From Massalongia carnosa (lineage: Eukaryota), in the NCBI GenBank assembly GCA_965645245.1, contig OZ287072.1, positions 1,922,001 to 1,986,000 on the forward strand: a stretch of 64,000 nt of DNA, read 5' to 3'. Within the stretch, counting starts at the first letter, position 1. Each line of letters begins with the position of its first letter. Made by a program: the position numbers and the translations under genes. This document shows positions 23,947-35,806 of this stretch, in pieces. The notes beneath the pieces are model-generated. The model was not told the origin of the DNA. It searched no databases and worked only from the letters and a program-made list of their open reading frames with translations.

Positions 23947-25249
23947 TAAAATATGCGGGAAAGAGAATGAATGACTATATGGATGATGGTGAAAATGATG
24001 GAAAAGGGAGCAGTTTTGAAGCAGCGACGATGGGGGAAAAGCTTACCGTTATCCCGACAGTGGATGGTTTTTAGGAGTATATACGTAGAGGCGAATGTCT
24101 CGAGGAAAATTCTGATAGCTGGGAAATCTCGCTTTCTGGAGCTGTAGCGGTCCTCAAATCTCATCGTACATGACTTTTTTTGTTTTTTTTTTCCGTTGGC
24201 CGCAATCATTTTCAACGTCGCCTTGAGCAACTCTCTTTTCCCCCCCTAGCCACCCCCACCCGCTGTAGTTTCCGCATCCCTCTTTCTCCAATCACCAGCC
24301 CCTATCCCGGCTTCTGACCACCCCAAAAAGCGGAACCACAGACAGTAAGTAGTTAGTTCTTCAAAGCCCTTGCTTTCCTCCCTTCAAAGCTGCTCTCATC
24401 TGTGATTTTCACTGAAGGGGGGATGATCCAGTGAACGACGATATATACTGGAGAAAGCCGGCAATGAAGCACCATACAAATTTTTTTTTAAATGAAATGG
24501 CCTTATATGAACAAGATAGGTCGAAGCGTCGCCAAAGGAAAGTAGAAGGGCAACACAAGTAAAAAATAAAAGTTTGATTCTTATTTCTTTCGTGGCAAGT
24601 TATTTCTAGGGCTAGGTGAGAAGAGATTTCGATCAATGTTTTTTGGTATTTTTATATATAAATAGATTTTATTACTCCCGAGTAAGAAACGAACGGATAG
24701 ACTTCTGGGCGACACCTAGCGATTTCCTAGTCCTCGATATGAAAATCTTGGTTCAGCGCGATGCGAGGTCCTCCAGGTCTCGCGCATTCAAGTGCATGTA
24801 CACCCTAGGTGGTTTGATAGCGACTCGAACACGGCTCTTCCATAAATAGCCAGGGAGAAGAATGGTAGATAAGGCTGGTAAGATTACAGATTGTTCCTTT
24901 GCGAACGATGAAAATTTGAGAGTAGCACGGGATAGAAATAGCGAGAGGGAGAGCAGGCCATGTGCAAGGACTCAGGGGTAAAATGCGCTGGTGGGCCGGA
25001 ATGTTTTAGCAGAAACTGAGCAAAAAAACAAACACCCTTATACGCGGTTCCACGATGTACAATCAACAACATTTGAGCTCATACAGTCGAACCCCGCCAC
25101 AACGATGGTGGCGTTTTACCAAAATAATTTCGTTATAGCGGGTTTTTCGTTATATCGGGGGAGAGGGAAAATCATGGTAAATTTACTACTTTGCCCCCCT
25201 AAAAACCCCCAATTCTCCCCCTTTGTCCCCAGCAAATACCCAAGTGCTT

Positions 25250-26446: not shown

Positions 26447-27915
26447 ATGAACATTCAACTCGAAAACACGTTCGTGATCGCGCACGCGGAGCAGAGAGAT
26501 CAACTGCTGTACAAGATAGATGACTATCTGATAGGCATAGGAGACGGAGGGGAACCGGAGGGAACAGGGATTCTAGAGGAGGTGAAAAATTTTCTCGATA
26601 ATCAGAGAAGCATCGACAACGACAACGAAAACATACCGAAGCCCATTCACGACACCCTGACTGAAATACAAAGAAGTCTAGCCCGTATCGAAAGTGCTAA
26701 GACAGCCACAAAAACCACAAACAGCTATTCCGCAGCCGCCACCAGAGGTCAAGCCTCCGAGGCCCCCCCGATTCCCCGCCGCACCAAGCCAATTACTTCT
26801 TCAAAACAAACCGAACCCTCACCACAAGAAGTTCGTCAGGCAAGAGCAATGACCGTAGTCATTTCCAGCGCAAGCGACAAGGAAAAAATAAAGAACATGC
26901 CCACAAAAGATCTCGTGGAGACACTACAAGCAGAAACGGAGGGGATTCGGGGAGTATCGCGACTCATCAGCGGAGATCTCAAAATTCACACTGAATCACT
27001 AGAAGTCAAAAAGACTCTACAACAAAAGTCGGAATGGACCCGAAAAATAGCCGACTCAGCGGCGATTAAGACACGGACATACTCAGAGTAAATGGTGTCA
27101 AGATGGAACACATCAAAACCGCCAACCAATCGCAGGCCATAGGGTACCTGCAGACCGCTAACGCATGCCTGCACCCGGACCTGCAGATAAAGAAAATAGC
27201 CTGGTCCACCAGGGCTATAAGGGAAAAGAAAGCGTTCTCCACGCTACATATGGAAGTCGCCACCGCCGAAACGGCCAATCGGGTTATAGCCGAGGGTCTC
27301 ATAATCGACTATGAAATCAAAGACTGTGAAAGATTCACAAAGGAATGCACCATGACGCAATGTTTTAATTGTCACAAATATGGTCATATAGGTCGATCAT
27401 GTCCCAACCCCACCGCCTGCGGTCACTGTGCTGGGGCTCACCCTAGCACCGAATGCAACATGGAAACAACAGGTAGATATCGAAGATGTGCTGCATGCAG
27501 TGAAAAGGGATACGAAGCCTAGTCAACATCCTGCGAAATCAGGAAAGTCGAAAAACGCAAAGCAGAGAGGGCCATGCAAAAACGGGTCCCATTCTACCCA
27601 GTAGTCGCCCCCGTACCGGCCCCGTTCAGGTTCCAGAGCGAAAACATCAACCCGGTCCTTGGCAGCACAAACAGCAAAAAGAGGAAAACCGCACCCCCCT
27701 CCAATACCCCCCCGAATCCCCCACGAACGGGAACATCCTGGGCTGACACGGGCATCATGAATCCAGAAAACATGACAAAGGCCCTTGCAAAACCTGTTGT
27801 AGGTAGACCCCCACTCAGACCCCGAGCTGTATCTACTGCCCCGGCGATAATCAGAGCAAACAACACCACCAACGACCCCTCGACCTCCCAGGCCGAATCA
27901 ATGGACGTCCTATGA
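26447..27915 (+). pseudogene. LINE A ORF1 (gag-like)
   Basis: CFNCHKYGHIGRSC, CGHCAGAHPSTEC, CAAC knuckles. Frameshift near 27090 and in-frame TAG at 27520. Confidence 0.88.
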
Positions 27916-30046
27916 GGGACACGAAATCTCTCTCCATATTGCAGTACAATGTCAGAAATGACAGAGTGAGTACAATGTTACCCCTCTTAGCCGATCCGAA
28001 CACTCAAGACTATGACATTATCGCAATTCAGGAACCCTGGCGCAATCCATCTATTTCTACCACGTTAAGCTCTCATCAAAGTGGGTTTCATTTATTATAT
28101 CGCCCAAATGGAGACACCAGAGTGTGTTTCTACATAAATGATACTATTGACCCTGATAGCTGGGAAGTAGAGTATCCGTCGGCCGACATGTGCACCCTAA
28201 AAATTCGAATGAAAATTGGAAACACATCAGACGTGATCCACATCCACAATGTGTATAATCCCTCTCCCATTTCCTATTCTTCTATAGACAGCCCGTCCAC
28301 GCTAGCAACAGTGAAACGCCAATTAATTGCAGAGACAAAACACATTTTACTAGGCGACTTCAACCTACATCATCCATTGTGGAATCATTCGTCGAGGCCT
28401 ACTCAACATGCGGAGTCGGAACAATTACTGAACATAAAAGAAGAGGCAAATCTATCACTAACACTTCCAAAAGGCACCATTACATGGGAGGCTAGACAAT
28501 CGTCTAGCACAATCAATCTTGTATTCATGTCAGAAGAATTAACGGATAGACTAGAACATTGCATGTCAAGACCGGAACTCAATCAGTCGTCCGATCACAT
28601 TCCGATCTCCACCCGAATTGCGCTGAACAGTGAGGTTCAAACAATCAGAGAACGCAGGGCCTGGAAACTGACGAACATGAGAAAACTGAGAGAAGCGGAA
28701 AAGAGGGCGCCCCCCCCGAAGACCCCCCCGATCCCCCGCCGAAATCGATGCTTACACTGTGTCAATTCAAAAATTTCTTCAAGAAGTGATAAAAACCTCT
28801 GTACCTTGGGCTAGACCCAGTAAGTACGCCAAACCCTTTTGGAATGATGAATGCAGTGTTATCACGAAAGAAACTCGTAGGCTCAGACGTGTCTGGTCCA
28901 ATTCCAGAGACATTTCTGATTGGATAACATACACAAAATCCAATCACAGAAAACAAAAAATCATTCAAAAGGCTAAAAGACTGTCGTTCCGCAAGGAAAT
29001 AGAAAAAGCCACCGAATCGCCTACTGGTCTCTGGCGACTAGCCAAATGGGCGAAAGACAAAAGTGACCAGACAAGAGAAATTCCCAAAATGCCCAATCTC
29101 GTTCGAGACGACCAAGTAGCAGAGACGTTCGAGGAGAAATCGGACATACTAAAACAGAAATTCTTTCCACCCGCCCCTCCGGCCGACCTCAGCGACATAG
29201 AGGGTTCATTTTACCCAGCCCGCCACAATGTCCAATGATCATAACCAAACTAGAGGTGATGGAAGCCATACGCCGACTCAAGCCCGATACGGCCCCGGGT
29301 CCGGACGGAATAGCCAACAGAATTGTAAAGGCATGCTCGGAAAAGCTAGTCGAATTACTCACCCCACTGTTTCAAGCATGCGTAGAACAAGCATATCATC
29401 CTCGTGCATTCAAAACCGCCAACACAATCACGCTCAAGAAAACAGGCAAGGATGACTATTCGGCCCCGAACGCCTATCGACCCATAGCACTCCTAAACAC
29501 GCTTGGAAAAGTAATGGAATCCATCATGTCACAAAAAATAACCCATCTAGCGGAAACCCACCGACTCCTGCCGACACCCAGATGGGCGCCAGACGAGGAA
29601 GATCAACCGAATCTGCACTAGAATTGTTGACTGAACAAATTCATACAGTGTGGGGCCAAGGCACAGACAAAGTAGCCACATTATTGAGCATGGACGTAGC
29701 AGGAGCCTATGACACAGTGACACATCGAAGACTGATTCACAATCTTCGCAAAAGGAAAATCCCAAAATGGATCACTGACTGGGTGAACAGTTTTCTGAAT
29801 GAAAGAACCACTACCCTGGCGATTCACAGCCGAGTCACGGGCATAGATAGATAGATAGATAGATATATTCTTACGCCGATATGTCACCGGCCGAAGGCCG
29901 GCCCATGCGGGATGGACTACTATGCTACAGGAAAACCTTTAATAGGAATAAAAACCCATTGCCAACGCTGCGCGTACGAGGTCCCAACGACCTCCAGCTG
30001 TGCTGCTCGTGTGCTTTTTCGATGAGTCCCTTGAATGAAAAGAAAA

Positions 30047-31860
30047 TTATTGCTTGTATAGCAAGCTTGCCGATAAAGAAAATTGCGCCAAAACGCCAGC
30101 TTCGATAATCCATCTCGTTACCTGTTTCAATGTTTTGGATGTTTCGATTATCGTACGATACTCGTTGGTATTTATACGCCGAAACAGCTCTTGTCTTCCC
30201 GTCATTAATGGGCAGTGCATGATTACGTGTTTGGCCGTTTGCTGGGGCCAACCACAGCTGCAGGCCGCCGTCGTCACGTTGGGAACTCGTCGTTTAAATA
30301 AAAAACTTGCCAGACCTATTTTTTCCGTGCGAATTTGGGTAGCTAACGCGCTTTCCGCTTTTGCCAGATTGTCGTGTATTTTGATTCTTCCTTTGGTTAA
30401 GGAAGCGCGCTGTGCTTCGGTGGGAAAGGGTACGCGATCTTGATATGCTTTCCAGGTTGTCTGCCATTTCGTTTTGTAATGCGCTTTTGTGGCTTGCGTG
30501 TGAGCGCTGCGACTCATCCTTACTGCATTGGCTGTGAGCATGTGTTGCTCCGTAGGCGTGATCCAGGGTGGGCGCGGCGTTGGGGCTGCGGTGGGTATGG
30601 CGCTGATCACTGTGTTTTTGGCCCATTCGTGCTTGAGCATTCCTGGGGTCGGTTTCGGCGATCTTTTCTTGCCCGCTTTTCCGCGCAACTTGCGTTCTAT
30701 CTCCTTGCAGAAAGACGAGATGAGTCTCGTTTGCCCGGCGGTTCGTTGGCGATATCTCGCTTTGACTTGTAATTCTTCCAAATGCGATTCTATAGACGTC
30801 ACGTGCGTTTCGGTTTCCAATACTGGAATCGGGGTGGCCCGAAATGCACCCGTTATTGTTCGCAAGCACTTGTTTTGCATGACCGCCAGCTTGCTCGTCG
30901 CGGCTTTGCTTTTCCCTATTTCTTTCGGTGTGTGCCATACGGCGGATGCGTAGGTCATTGCCGGACGAACGACCGCAATATAAACCTGTCTGGCCTTCGA
31001 GAACGAGGCTCCCCATGTGGACGCGGAGATCCTGGTCAGTGCACCCGATTGTTTCGTCATTTTTTCTTGAGTTTTCCGTATATGGGCTCCCCATCTCAGT
31101 TTGGTGTCGATTTGTAGACCCAGCACCCTGATATCCGGTTTGGGTTCGATCGTTTTTGTGCTTATCCTGATGGTGGCCGTCATGTCGAATTTTTTCGGAT
31201 TTCTGGACAGATGAATAAGCTCGTATTTGCTCGGGGCAAACACGGAGCCGTGGCGTAAGGACCATCTCTCGCATTCCTTGTGAATTCTTTCTAGCGTTCT
31301 GCAGTTTTCCTCGGTGCTTTTGCCGTATGCCAGAACGTTGACGTCGTCTACGAAGCCCAGTGAGCTTGTATTCGTGCCTGGTCTTTGACATATTTCCAGC
31401 AGGTCTGCGTTGTAGAATAAATATAGAATCGGGGAAATGGGAGAGCCCTGGGGGATCCCTGTTCTCACATCGAATACATCGGTGGTGCGTCGTTGGATCG
31501 TAAGCGTTGTCCTTCTTTCGCTCAAGAAGCTCTCGGTCCAATCGGTAATCCATTTGGGAAATCTTTCTCTTTCGCAGATTGTGTATCAATCTTTGGTGAG
31601 ATACGGTATCGAACGCTCCTGCTACGTCCATGCTGAGCAGTGTTGCCACCTTGTCGTTGCCCTGGCCCCAGACCGTGTGCACCTGTTCCGTGAGAAGTTC
31701 CAGTGCCGATTCGGTGGATCTTCCTCTACGAGCCCCCATCTGCATGTCGGGTAGCAGGTTGTTGCTCTCGGCCATGTGGGTGATTCTTCTTGCGATCACT
31801 GCTTCTAGTACCTTGCCCATTGTGTTCAATAACGCTATCGGTCGATAGGCTTTCGGGGCT
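30047..31860 (-). pseudogene. LINE B ORF2, C-terminal half (RT + CCHC), 5'-truncated, one frameshift near 31560
   Basis: PKAYRPIALLNTMGK, DVAGAFD, GIPQGSPISP, GFVDD, CSCGW...HVIMHC. Related to, but clearly diverged from, LINE A ORF2. Confidence 0.92.
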
Positions 31861-32837
31861 AAGAATGATAAAATAGAGTTGACATCTCCTTCGTGAAGTC
31901 TCTATCCCAGTTTTCGTTCATCTCACTGGTGCGTTTTACGGCCCAAGACTATTGATGAATTCTACGATTGGGGTGAACGACGTCCCTTTCGCCCAGGTCA
32001 AACCCAGTTTACTCCTTAAGCATATATCAAGGGCGAGTCTAGCCGTAGCCCATGCGCCGGCGAACCAACGGGGTCTCGTTACGAGCGAGATAGACATTCC
32101 CTGCTCTATATACACCGACATGCGCATACTGTCCTCTCGGGCTATGCAGACGGTCTCCGTACGGTGGCCGCCATTGCATACCACGCCTCACGGGTTTTTT
32201 ACGCCCACTTCGCGTTACTCATAAAGGTCTCCCGTTTATGAACCGACCATGTCTCGCAGGGGTTTCGACCACTATGCTCCTGACCAGGCAGTATAGTATC
32301 GATTTTCCGTCCCTACTAACCAAAACGAGTCGAGGACAACTCGGAGGGGTGCTCGTTTGAAATTCGTCTATTAGCTCAGGGCCTAGACTGTTATCAATTA
32401 ACGGGTTCCTCGTATATTGCCCTCTTCTTGTCCCAAGGGTGTCCTATTTGATGACTAGGTTGCCTCCACCATCCCCGGTACGACTCCGGTTCGGGCCGTG
32501 TTGCTCACGGTAGCCATCAATTGGATGGTTTTCATAACCCAAATCCCTTGTATCGTGTAGGGTGTGACCCTACACTATGTGTCTATATGTTTTATTTCTT
32601 TCAGCCGGAGGGCTCCGTGTTGTAGACGAAGGAGACCCGTGTGATAGACATAGCTGACCCGTGTCGTACGTCTTTAGCTCTCAGCCGATGACTGCATGAA
32701 AGGACTTGAACCTTTAAGAGTATGACCGAACGTTGTTAACGAGGTCTATGAAAATCTTATTAACGAGGTCTTCGAGAACAATATTAACGAAGTTCCGCTG
32801 AACTCTTTTCATTCGTTTTGTGATCCATCGAGGTCTA

Positions 32838-33024
32838 CCCGTGTCAAATCCACACCATGCCCGTGTCAAATCCACACCATGCCCGTGTCAAATCCACACC
32901 ATGCCCGTGTCAAATCCACACCATGCCCGTGTCAAATCCACACCATGCCCGTGTCAAATCCACACCATGCCCGTGTCAAATCCACACCATGCCCGTGTCA
33001 AATCCACACCATGCCCGTGTCAAA
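32838..33024. repeat. Perfect 22-bp tandem array CCCGTGTCAAATCCACACCATG x8.5
   Basis: Direct reading, period 22. Confidence 0.95.
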
Positions 33025-33155
33025 ATATATTATTTTCAGCTGATGACTGCTAGAAAGGCCTTGAACCTCTAAAAATATGTACTCCGATATTAACGGGGTG
33101 CAGATCTGTCTTAACGAGTCCCCGCAGAACCCCCTTCACAGGGACGTGTTATTGA

Positions 33156-33292
33156 TTTGTGACTGTGTTTTTTGTGACTGTGTGTTTTGTGACTGTGTGT
33201 TTGTGACTGTATGTTTGTGACTGTGTGCTTTGTGACTGTGTGCTTTGTACAACGTGTGATTGATGACTATGTGTTTTGTGACTCTGTGTTTT
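33156..33292. repeat. Degenerate 15-16 bp array, TTTGTGACTGTGTG-like, ~9 units
   Basis: Direct reading. Confidence 0.9.
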
Positions 33293-33732
33293 CCTCGATT
33301 TTATTTAATAGGCCGGGCCTATTAAATGGGATATTGTTATTCTGCTCCGAGATGGAGTTTTCTTGAGGTGACAGCATTCGCCCCGGTGCCTTTACGCGTT
33401 CTGTTGATCCCAGCTGATGACTGCATGGGGAGACTTGAACTCTCAGGAGCTAGAACGCGTGTCGACTGTGCCCGGGTGGGGGATGATGCGGCTCCTTTGG
33501 TCCACATCTTCTTCCAGCTGATGACTGCATGAAGGGACTTGAACCCTTAGAAGCATGGTGCAGGGACGCGCGCATTCTACCCCCCGGCGGTTGGCCTTCG
33601 TATCCTCTTCCGTACGTACGTCTGCGACGCGTGTGAACGCGTTAAATTAGCATTGTTTTGATGCGAAGAGATAGGAGCAAATCTATATGTTTGACGGTCG
33701 CCCCACGGTGAGGCCTTTGGCGTCTCCGTGGT

Positions 33733-33972
33733 GAGGACCGATGGTGTAGAAGGAGGAGGACCGATGGTGTAGAAGGAGGAGGACCGATGGTGTAGAAGGA
33801 GGAGGACCGATGGTGTAGAAGGAGGAGGACCGATGGTGTAGAAGGAGGAGGACCGATGGTGTAGAAGGAGGAGGACCGATGGTGTAGAAGGAGGAGGACC
33901 GATGGTGTAGAAGGAGGAGGACCGATGGTGTAGAAGGAGGAGGACCGATGGTGTAGAAGGAGGAGGACCGAT
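33733..33972. repeat. Perfect 23-bp tandem array GAGGACCGATGGTGTAGAAGGAG x10 plus 10 bp
   Basis: Direct reading; abuts the right TSD. Confidence 0.95.
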
Positions 33973-35806
33973 CCGAGTCACGGGCATATTCGATGTAAAA
34001 ACCGGAATCCCACAAGGCTCCCCCATTTCTCCTGTTCTTTATCTGTTCTACAATGCAGACCTACTAGACATATGTGAAAGACCAGGCAGCAACACGAGTG
34101 CTCTAGGCTTCGTAGATGACATCAATGTGCTAGCATACGGAAAAAGCACCGAAGAAAATTGCAAGACGCTAGAGGTAATTCACAAAAAATGTGAAAAATG
34201 GGCAGGTCGACATGGTTCAGTCTTCGCTCCGAAGAAATACGAATTGATACATCTGTCAAGAAATCCGAAGAAATTCAACATGTTCACTGTTATTCAAATA
34301 GGAAATAACATCATAAAACCAAAGACAGACATCGGAATTCTAGGACTTCAAATCGATTCAAAATTGAAATGGGGTGCTCACACAAGGAAAATCCAGGAAA
34401 AAATGACAAAACTATCCAGGGCATTGACAAAAATATCCACCTCCACATGGGGCGCCACTCTTCTAAAGGCACGTCAGGTTTACACCGCCGTAGTCCGGCC
34501 GGCCATGACGTACGGCTCCACCATTTGGCACATGCCAAAAGAAATTCAAAAATCAAACGTCATCTCAAACAAATTGGCTGTCATACAAAACAAATGTCTA
34601 AGAAACATAGCCGGAGCCTTCAAAGCAACGCCCATAGCTATACTAGAAGCAGAGACATTTATAGCCTCAATTGACATACATTTAGATCAACTACAGGCCC
34701 AGACCAGACAACGCCTGTGTCGAAATGGCCAAAAGAGTTTCACCACAAATGCATGCAACAAAATAGCCAATAAACTTCGAGGTCGGGCAGGCCGCAAGAG
34801 GGCCCCAGTCATCACTCCAGGAACGCTGAAATACGCCTGGGCCAAGAGAATCACACCGGAGGCACATAACCCTCCAACACCAACACCAAATCCACCATGG
34901 GCCGAATCCCCCCCGAATCTCACCCGAGAAATAGGGGAGGCACGCGCCGCTCATAACAAAATAACTGCTCAAATCAAAAAACGACACACAGTTGCATGGC
35001 AGGCCTCGTGGAGATCATATCAGGAACGCACACCCGTTCCCACCCCGGCACAATCAGGTTCACTCTCCAAAAAACGCATCAAATTGCACGAAACTCTAGC
35101 CAAAGCGGAGAGCGCGCTGGCCATTCAGATACGCTCAGAAAAGATAGGCCTAGCCGCCTTCCTACATAGACACCGAGTCCCAGACGTCTCGTCCCCGAAC
35201 TGCTCATGCGGCTGGCACAAACAGACCGCAAAACATGTGATCATGTTTTGCAAACTCAACGACAACAGAAAAACTCTGCTAAATACGATAGGCACAAACA
35301 ACTATCGATTAATCACTGAGTCATCTAAAGCAATGAAATTAGTCACAAAGTGCCTAATGAAGACAGGTTTGTTGTCACAATTTTCGCTGACAGCATAGCA
35401 TCTATACTGCTAACAGTAGGCATGCTTTGTTTCATTTTTCATACTTGTCTTAGGTCAAAGGTTTTTTCATGGAGCACACGGCTGGGACCCGGAGGGTCCT
35501 CGGTCGGACACAGGATTGCATGGTTTTTCTTCCTCAAAAGGTTTTCCATGTACTATAAAACTAGATAGACTCGCCCGCATGTACCGGCCTTCGGCCGGTA
35601 CCACATCGGAATAAGAATAATCATCATCATCATATGACACCTCGCTATAACGAACGTCACCAAAAATCTGAAAATAATTTTCGTTATATCGTTATGGAGG
35701 GTTTTTCGTTATAGCGAGGGTTTTACCATATAACTACAAAAAATCCGAGAAATAAATTCGTTATACGGAACTTCCCTATAGCGGGGTTCGACTGTATATC
35801 ATATTG

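Follow-up and report, generated by a model that had tools for sequence, protein, structure and literature searches.

A T-arm-like RNA three-way junction repeated in the non-coding partner of truncated LINEs: a probable MINE-type composite in Massalongia carnosa

Four related repeats in a 64,000-nucleotide stretch of DNA from Massalongia carnosa (GenBank assembly GCA_965645245.1, contig OZ287072.1, positions 1,922,001 to 1,986,000 of the forward strand; hereafter the window, with positions counted from its first letter) are shown by comparative analysis to be copies of a predicted RNA three-way junction of ~55-63 nt on the window minus strand. One arm of the junction has the look of a tRNA T-arm, and the junctions are probably modules of a longer structured non-coding RNA, given here the working name element X, that is fused to truncated long interspersed nuclear elements (LINEs) in the manner of the MINE elements of Magnaporthe. 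That X together with its LINE constitutes a MINE-type composite retroelement is proposed with high confidence by analogy of architecture; the role suggested below for the junctions is held far more tentatively. The RNA fold appears to be undescribed. It is not in Rfam, and a literature search on T-loops and three-way junctions in elements of the type lacking long terminal repeats, with subscription journals outside its coverage, yielded no description of the motif.

The motif core, CAGCYGATGACTGCWWG, has exactly four matches in the window, all on the plus strand, at 32682, 33037, 33411 and 33515, where 0.10 would be expected and none of 100 shuffles reaches four. A repeat search groups the same four as one family, with a copy length of 44 nt and 70-84% identity to the reference, and when the four are aligned with their flanks the similarity ends sharply at the motif borders, with unrelated sequence directly outside. 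Within these copies (M1 to M4 in the table) the T-stem is paired in 19 of 20 cells and the inner part of the closing helix, P1, in 15 of 16, the pairings being those that a preliminary description of this DNA had listed. The T-loop deviation of M2 traces to base 33059, which is A in nearly all other aligned contigs, giving back UUCAAGU.

Further copies come from metagenome contigs, scanned with a pattern in which the loops, the short CAG/CUG hairpin and the linker were fixed and both P1 and the 5-bp stem were left as N. The 15 matches in 12 loci reduce on merging to 12 distinct copies in 9 distinct loci (L001, L008 and L010 being one locus, and L002 and L005 another). In these 12 copies the stems left free by the pattern pair in 58 of 60 cells for the T-stem, 45 of 48 for inner P1 and 48 of 72 for outer P1, the corresponding values being 83%, 69% and 50% in a cross-copy control where the 5′ strand of one copy is set against the 3′ strand of another. 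For the 16 copies from window and metagenomes together, 83.7% of cells are paired versus 71.1% in shuffles (0 of 500 reach the observed value) and 36-52% when the partners are slid by 1-3 columns, and 14 of 18 pairs have changes on both sides. A covariance model, R1, made from the 16 copies finds 25 non-overlapping copies in the window and the 9 loci, with E values from 4e-26 to 4e-7; two of the 25 have the compensatory change of CAG/CUG to GAG/CUC, and in most metagenome copies P1 extends to as many as 10 bp. The claim of the preliminary description, a four-copy covarying three-way-junction motif with near-invariant loops, is thus sustained. In a prokaryote genome collection the loop pattern had no match, and in viral contigs it had one (L013/L014; L014 8001-8029; 21.4 bits), which is judged a chance hit because stem pairing, X homology and LINE homology are all absent. 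Two further pairings were considered by eye and set aside: that of the junction tetramer CWWG with CATG, TATG or CTAG after P1, for which there is no covariation, and that between the two boxes flanking the motif, which is partial at most and worse on the RNA-sense strand.

With regard to strand, whichever strand shows G·U after a transition in a Watson-Crick pair, the opposite strand shows A·C, and an excess of G·U therefore tells which strand is under RNA selection. In the T-stem there are 15 G·U cells on the minus strand, which is also the LINE sense, versus 2 on the plus strand, and in inner P1 8 versus 2; among 70 pairs of the X 3′ domain that are predicted on both strands the figures are 31 and 8. 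These counts point to the window minus strand as the RNA sense. In that sense the order from 5′ to 3′ is the P1 5′ strand, a U, one side of a 5-bp stem, UUCAAGU, the other side of the stem, CWUG, CAG, UCAUCAG, CUG and the P1 3′ strand. The loop UUCAAGU is present in 23 of the 25 copies, with UUCAAGG and a one-base deletion in the remaining two, and the second loop, UCAUCAG, is present in 20.

The consensus of the tRNA T-loop is U54-U55-C56-R57-A58, into which UUCAAGU fits. Compared by sequence and predicted pairing, the arm resembles a T-arm in having a 5-bp stem (96.3% paired) closed by a G-C pair in 16 of 16 copies, as with G53-C61, and a 7-nt loop of the form U-U-C-R-A-N-N. It differs in lying outside any cloverleaf and in attaching to the 5′ strand of its closing helix, and the partner loop UCAUCAG lacks the GG of a D-loop. 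Nor do the units look like tRNA genes or the heads of tRNA-derived short interspersed nuclear elements (SINEs), given an arm order unlike that of tRNA, no T-run after the units and no cloverleaf; ARAGORN detects no tRNA gene in the window or in the 9 loci. Of the second reading offered by the preliminary description, a minus-strand mimic of the T-arm, the strand and the UUCAAGU loop with its closing G-C therefore stand, and what it left unexplained is the covarying P1 and the second hairpin.

Element X, of which the junctions are modules, is 1.2-2.1 kb long in the copies seen, each with 2-4 copies of the motif, and identity between X loci is 70-85%. Its shared order, 5′ to 3′ on the minus strand, is a terminal array, a covarying hairpin, an ACGCGT-rich region, the motif units, a conserved hairpin and a 3′ domain of ~500 nt. 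RNAalifold on nine sequences of the 3′ domain gives −113.95 kcal/mol for the minus strand, with 117 pairs of which 53 are compensatory, and −74.28 kcal/mol with 102 pairs for the plus strand. Every motif unit is bordered by a CUCGUUAA(UACUGG) box on its 5′ side and a UUCAACACGGGC box on its 3′ side. The former (AGTATTAACGAG on the plus strand) also flanks the motif in the metagenome loci, the box GCCCGTGTTGAA does so in other loci, and the 24-nt repeats and 22-nt array of the window are expansions of such motif-flanking boxes. The 22-nt array varies in copy number, since contigs of runs X1, X6 and X7 omit 154 nt (7 units) at 32837-32992. At the 5′ end of X the 23-nt array abuts the target-site duplication described below, and purine-rich terminal repeats akin to it recur at the same X end in L006, L009 and L012, for which reason it is not considered target-derived. 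Coordinates are given in the table.

Table. Features of the window that bear on element X and its LINE setting (positions in the 64,000-nt window; TRF, Tandem Repeats Finder; ORF, open reading frame; UTR, untranslated region)
Feature	Position	Strand	Basis
Element X (working name), non-coding structured 5′ partner RNA, 2.1 kb	31855..33972	−	whole-length homology to 9 metagenome loci
X 3′ end, ...AUUCUUAGCC	31855-31866	−	boundary constant at 31854-31857 in other copies
X 3′ structured domain, ~500 nt	31855..32350	−	RNAalifold, 9 sequences
Motif copy M1, loop 2 UCAUCGG	32668..32730	−	covariance model R1, 64.9 bits, E 2.9e-20; core match at 32682
CUCGUUAA box repeat, 24-nt unit, 2.3 copies, 5′ of M1 in RNA sense	32736..32790	−	TRF
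22-nt array, 8.5 copies, 100% identical, expanded GACACGGGC box, 3′ of motif in RNA sense	32838..33024	−	TRF
Motif copy M2, T-loop UUCAAGG, junction CUAG	33023..33085	−	covariance model R1, 65.4 bits
15-nt array, TGTGAC-rich region of X	33156..33292	−	TRF; homologous TGTGTTGTGACGCG region in L003, L006, L012
Motif copy M3	33397..33459	−	covariance model R1, 62.0 bits
Motif copy M4	33501..33563	−	covariance model R1, 63.9 bits
23-nt array, 10.4 copies, 100% identical, X 5′ end	33733..33972	−	TRF
LINE A (host LINE, interrupted by the X+LINE B insertion)	26447..35631	+	Pfam, blastn; 26447 is the first ORF, not a mapped 5′ end
LINE B, 5′-truncated in reverse-transcriptase domain 1 (starts ...APKAYRPIALLNTMGK), plus 3′ UTR	29866..31854	−	Pfam RVT_1; junction read
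LINE B 3′ tail (UAUC)5, (GATA)5 on the plus strand	29846..29865	−	sequence
Target-site duplication, left copy, 16 bp, CCGAGTCACGGGCATA	29830..29845	.	exact string search
Target-site duplication, right copy, 16 bp, CCGAGTCACGGGCATA	33973..33988	.	exact string search

Some other features of X may be recorded beside these. The palindrome ACGCGT, which is like an MluI box, is clustered in the 5′ third of X, at window 33397-33640 and in L002, L003, L009 and L012; the window X has 4 sites versus 0.5 expected, and in five of nine X copies no more than 3 of 500 shuffles reach the count. Such a cluster could be an internal promoter or a group of transcription-factor sites. An extra GUCAUCA-like box (TTTGATGRCTAGG on the plus strand), at window 32442-32456 and at about 1000 in L009, has the 3′ domain on one side and the motif units on the other, and repeats the loop-2 sequence outside the junction. 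One contig of run X1 links 32725 to 33554, everything between M1 and M4 being gone, as recombination between motif copies would give. Rfam contains no credible counterpart of window 31800-34200 (E<=10) or of seven related loci (E<=1), in line with the preliminary description, which could place the motif in no named family. A hairpin of the X 3′ domain at 32300-32343 on the minus strand scored 24.8 bits (E 0.01) with the Streptococcus small RNA SpR10, whose gathering threshold is 50, and ceN63 reached 16.6 bits with a gathering threshold of 65; both are taken as chance.

A reading at the level of DNA would have the GGTTCAAGTCC core serve as a B-box, the binding site for TFIIIC in RNA polymerase III (Pol III) transcription, either as a SINE-like internal promoter or as an extra-TFIIIC insulator, with the fold secondary. 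In keeping with it, the B-box-critical G53, T54, T55, C56, A58 and C61 are kept in every copy and the motif is multi-copy inside a mobile element; T-runs of at least 4 are also rarer than A-runs on the RNA-sense strand (15 versus 41 in 7 copies), most of which is explained by base composition. However, a B-box needs no P1, no second hairpin and no compensatory changes, all three of which are conserved, and the bias in G·U speaks for selection on RNA. As an A-box the best candidate is TAATACTGG, which begins only ~26 nt before the B-box and matches poorly when judged by eye; there is no terminator T-run after the motif units, X at its length would be long for a Pol III transcript, and ARAGORN, as noted, reports no tRNA. 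This reading is unlikely.

In the window X does not stand by itself. It forms with LINE B a unit of 4127 bp (29846-33972, minus strand) that is nested between the two 16-bp duplications in LINE A. By Pfam and from the sequence, LINE A carries a zinc knuckle in ORF1 (27361), an endonuclease (27912-28814) and a reverse transcriptase, and its tail, (ATC)n, is at 35620-35631. By blastn, 29463-29826 and 33987-34596 are adjacent coding parts of LINE A, the reverse transcriptase of which has been split by the insertion, and LINE B is 70-73% identical to LINE A in DNA. The empty site is also represented: one contig of run X1 links 29820 directly to 33973 with the insert absent. The architecture of duplication and tail is that of the window copy alone, the other contigs stopping short of it.

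Wherever a contig extends far enough, the 3′ end of X is constant (...AUUCUU(A/G)GCC) and is followed, in the same sense, by LINE sequence whose starting point is different in each case, eight X-LINE junctions thus having one X end and eight different LINE breakpoints. The LINE part starts in reverse-transcriptase domain 1 in the window, at GFMDDVN in L007, at CEEWARRHG in L012, at ARKHGATF in L003, at VITPGTLKY in run X2 (identical to window 34807-34833), at LLNCLGKIAE in run X7 and at a position that is unassigned in run X6. In L009 it starts in the ORF1 zinc-knuckle region; the ORF there matches no Pfam family, its link to LINE ORF1 consisting of two CCHC patterns seen by eye and a tblastn match to LINE A 27334-27579 (ORF1) with 31.8% identity and E 2e-11. 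In the two of the eight junctions that are comparable with LINE A, GCC is found just upstream of the breakpoint, GGCC/CCGAA for the window and GGGCCCC/AGTCATC for X2 (the slash being the breakpoint), which matches the X end ...AGCC. As a separate observation, AAGAAU at the LINE end is the complement of AUUCUU near the X 3′ end, in which coincidence may be all that is involved.

The same junctions bear on the possibility that X belongs natively to a LINE family as its 5′ UTR and internal promoter, its motif-box units being promoter monomers and the copies internal-deletion derivatives. The tandem arrays at the 5′ terminus of X do resemble the monomers of LINE 5′ UTRs, the ACGCGT boxes are concentrated in the 5′ third, and X is always upstream of LINE sequence in the same sense. 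But deletions would not always begin at the same X nucleotide, as one X end with eight LINE breakpoints would require; none of the eight junctions is at the start of ORF1, X is absent from the 5′ end of the full-length LINE A of the window, and the compensatory changes with the G·U bias signify constraint at the level of RNA. The possibility is accordingly rated as very unlikely.

Just as improbable is that the motifs are tRNA-like processing signals cut by enzymes of the RNase P/RNase Z type, comparable to mascRNA in MALAT1 or the t-elements of plant mitochondria, to give small RNAs or the ends of X. The T-arm is canonical, most metagenome copies have a long P1 (up to 10 bp) that is acceptor-like, and X needs some route to a defined 3′ end. 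However, the T-arm attaches to the 5′ strand of P1 where in tRNA it attaches to the 3′ strand, so that the coaxial helix of acceptor and T-arm, on which recognition by such enzymes depends, is not reproduced. The motifs are also 800-1700 nt away from the constant X 3′ end, and they are evidently not efficiently cut, because full-length X, motifs included, gets reverse-transcribed.

Almost no credence can be given to the first reading in the preliminary description, a type I hammerhead-like self-cleaving ribozyme on the plus strand with helix II reduced to a linker and perhaps acting as a dimer. Minimal type I hammerheads occur in Penelope-like elements, and the likeness consists of a three-way junction with the heptamer CUGAUGA on one strand, within a retroelement. 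Of the 25 copies, 20 have the heptamer (complement of UCAUCAG) on the plus strand; in some a hairpin comes after GAA(A), and three window copies have the self-complementary UGCA in their linker. But in 16 of 16 aligned copies CUGAUGA is the 7-nt loop of a 3-bp CAG/CUG hairpin and not a strand between helices I and II; helix II is absent, with only the 7 unpaired nucleotides of CUG and CWWG between the heptamer and the next stem; and the positions of an invariant G12-A13-A14 are part of the 5′ strand of a covarying stem (AAAGG, GGGAG, GATGG, GAGGG, AGAGG) and read GGG, GAT, GAG or AGA elsewhere. The linker is CAAG and not CATG in most copies, from which the UGCA palindrome is consequently missing, the hammerhead covariance models of Rfam give no match at the thresholds stated above, and the G·U statistics with the LINE fusion put the RNA on the strand opposite CUGAUGA, making the heptamer an antisense hairpin loop.

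The reading that is left as probable, junctions as modules of an X RNA fused to truncated LINEs, has a number of observations weighing against it. Among the X copies examined (window, metagenome loci and sequencing runs) there is no clearly LINE-free one, which leaves unexplained the source of X RNA that is free and has a defined 3′ end. The sense assigned to X depends on the G·U statistics and the LINE fusion; in the poorly conserved outer P1 the G·U bias is reversed (11 minus versus 18 plus), and the single copies M3 and L003a favour the plus strand. Outer P1 pairs in 8 of 24 cells in the window copies, leaving a window P1 of just ~4 bp (3-6 bp). Isolated 51-nt window copies do not exceed shuffles in stability (z −0.14 to −0.58), and the minimum-energy fold is the three-way junction in two of the four, not in M2 and M3; for the long-P1 copies from L003 and L012 the junction is the minimum-energy fold, with z about −1.9. 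The counts given above are of copies related by descent, not of independent events. On two-unit alignments RNAalifold paired one T-arm instead with a spacer box, in one subfamily, a pairing that was not adopted as the window boxes do not fit it. Finally, protein binding by the junction, to which we come below, is a suggestion from sequence and analogy.

For the fused state of X the closest known parallel is MINE of Magnaporthe, for which the following relies on parts of a single 2007 paper. There, a full-length 1.1-kb non-coding sequence, WEIRD, is fused to the LINE MGL truncated at 28 different sites, with flanking duplications of 10-20 bp and a switch-site consensus of GCC*A/U, and template switching by the reverse transcriptase of the LINE is the origin that its authors give for the chimeras (PMC2104539). 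In the parts of that paper drawn on here, no solo WEIRD copies and no homologues in other genomes had been found, and WEIRD is given no known function. X is likewise a non-coding partner on the 5′ side, ~1-2 kb long, with nothing missing up to its fixed 3′ end, and is fused in the same sense to variably truncated LINEs; the 16-bp duplication falls within the 10-20-bp range, GCC is present at switch sites, and there is no clearly LINE-free copy of the partner in either case. The two are likened by architecture and description, not by sequence homology of X to WEIRD. They differ in that those same parts of the paper report neither homologues nor a conserved secondary structure for WEIRD, whereas X has relatives in 9 metagenome loci and in several sequencing runs, its fold is supported by covariation, its T-loop junction is repeated and there are tandem arrays inside the element. 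The literature searched on fungal chimeric retroelements, with the coverage stated at the outset, has no description of WEIRD structure.

On the model put forward for WEIRD and MGL, the LINE reverse transcriptase would copy LINE RNA during target-primed reverse transcription, then at a GCC site switch templates to X RNA, which it would copy from the 3′ end. A mammalian counterpart is seen in the chimeras of U6 small nuclear RNA and L1, where, in the summary given by part of the same paper, the reverse transcriptase of the LINE moves over to the 3′ end of a different RNA (PMC2104539). The outcome is like X-LINE, a full-length RNA being joined to a LINE of variable truncation, with target-site duplications on either side. 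A difference is that U6 is a housekeeping Pol III RNA with genes of its own, and that X, which is long, evolves as repeats do, with arrays and 70-85% identity between loci, and is not known to have a cellular role. SINEs with a LINE-derived 3′ tail are also comparable in that X is non-autonomous, relies on a LINE 3′ end for its reverse transcription and has a tRNA-like sequence element in its 5′ part. In X, however, the LINE part is a different and often kilobase-long fragment in each lineage instead of a fixed short tail, and the head is a structured RNA of 1.2-2.1 kb with no recognisable unit of A-box, B-box and terminator.

As to what the T-loop junctions do, they may, tentatively and with the balance of judgement slightly against, be protein-recognition modules, candidates for the partner being a factor that binds the tRNA elbow or T-arm, or the ORF1 or ORF2 proteins of the LINE. 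Such a site fits with loops that are near-invariant on stems that covary, with loops that have no complementary partner in X or the LINEs, and with a module that is repeated 2-4 times; the look of a T-arm is what suggests a reader of tRNA elbows or the RNA-binding proteins of the LINE. The complements of the two conserved loops (CTGATGA and ACTTGAA) have no sites in LINE A, LINE B or X, with one ACTTGAA in L012, making loop-loop kissing with X or LINE RNAs unlikely. As recognition modules the junctions could stabilise X RNA and hold it close to the LINE ribonucleoprotein, and X RNA would thereby become the preferred acceptor of the template jump. A bolder and more doubtful proposition is that X represents a LINE parasite of a kind not recognised before: a long structured RNA that lacks both a promoter head of the tRNA, 7SL or 5S type and a fixed LINE tail. 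It would spread by presenting its GCC 3′ end as a landing site to the LINE reverse transcriptase when this jumps between templates, and would use its junctions to capture LINE proteins or a host factor that handles tRNA.

The setting is fungal, the genes of the window encoding a white-collar-type PAS/GATA protein, NOP9 and DNA ligase I by Pfam. Some observations on its mobile elements are of separate interest. In this LINE family the 3′ ends (35560-35631, 29846-29920 and L012 60-110) have a GC hairpin (CCGGCCTTCGGCCGG in LINEs A and B), then ...TAAGAATA and then a tandem tail that differs by copy, being (ATC)n, (TATC)n or (TCAA)n. Short TCGTTATAGCGAGGGTTTT-like repeats, 85.7% identical over 35 nt, are at 25127-25161 and 35686-35724 on either side of LINE A, which may therefore itself be nested in another repeat. 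An ORF at 798-2081 with a DDE_1 transposase domain (Pfam E 2e-08) is a further mobile-element remnant.

With these results a MINE-like architecture is now seen beyond the one fungus in which it was described, in another fungal genome as well as in 9 metagenome loci and several sequencing runs, and its non-coding partner is a conserved, covariation-supported RNA with a repeated T-arm-like junction. This gives testable hypotheses on how a non-coding RNA comes to be copied by a LINE enzyme; model R1 can be used to find relatives, and a false ribozyme lead has been removed. Should the proposals on X hold, the junction would be a new protein-binding RNA motif, comparable in function to the reverse-transcriptase-binding three-way junction of telomerase RNA, and WEIRD/MINE of the rice blast fungus would belong to a fungal family that is widespread and shares a conserved RNA architecture.

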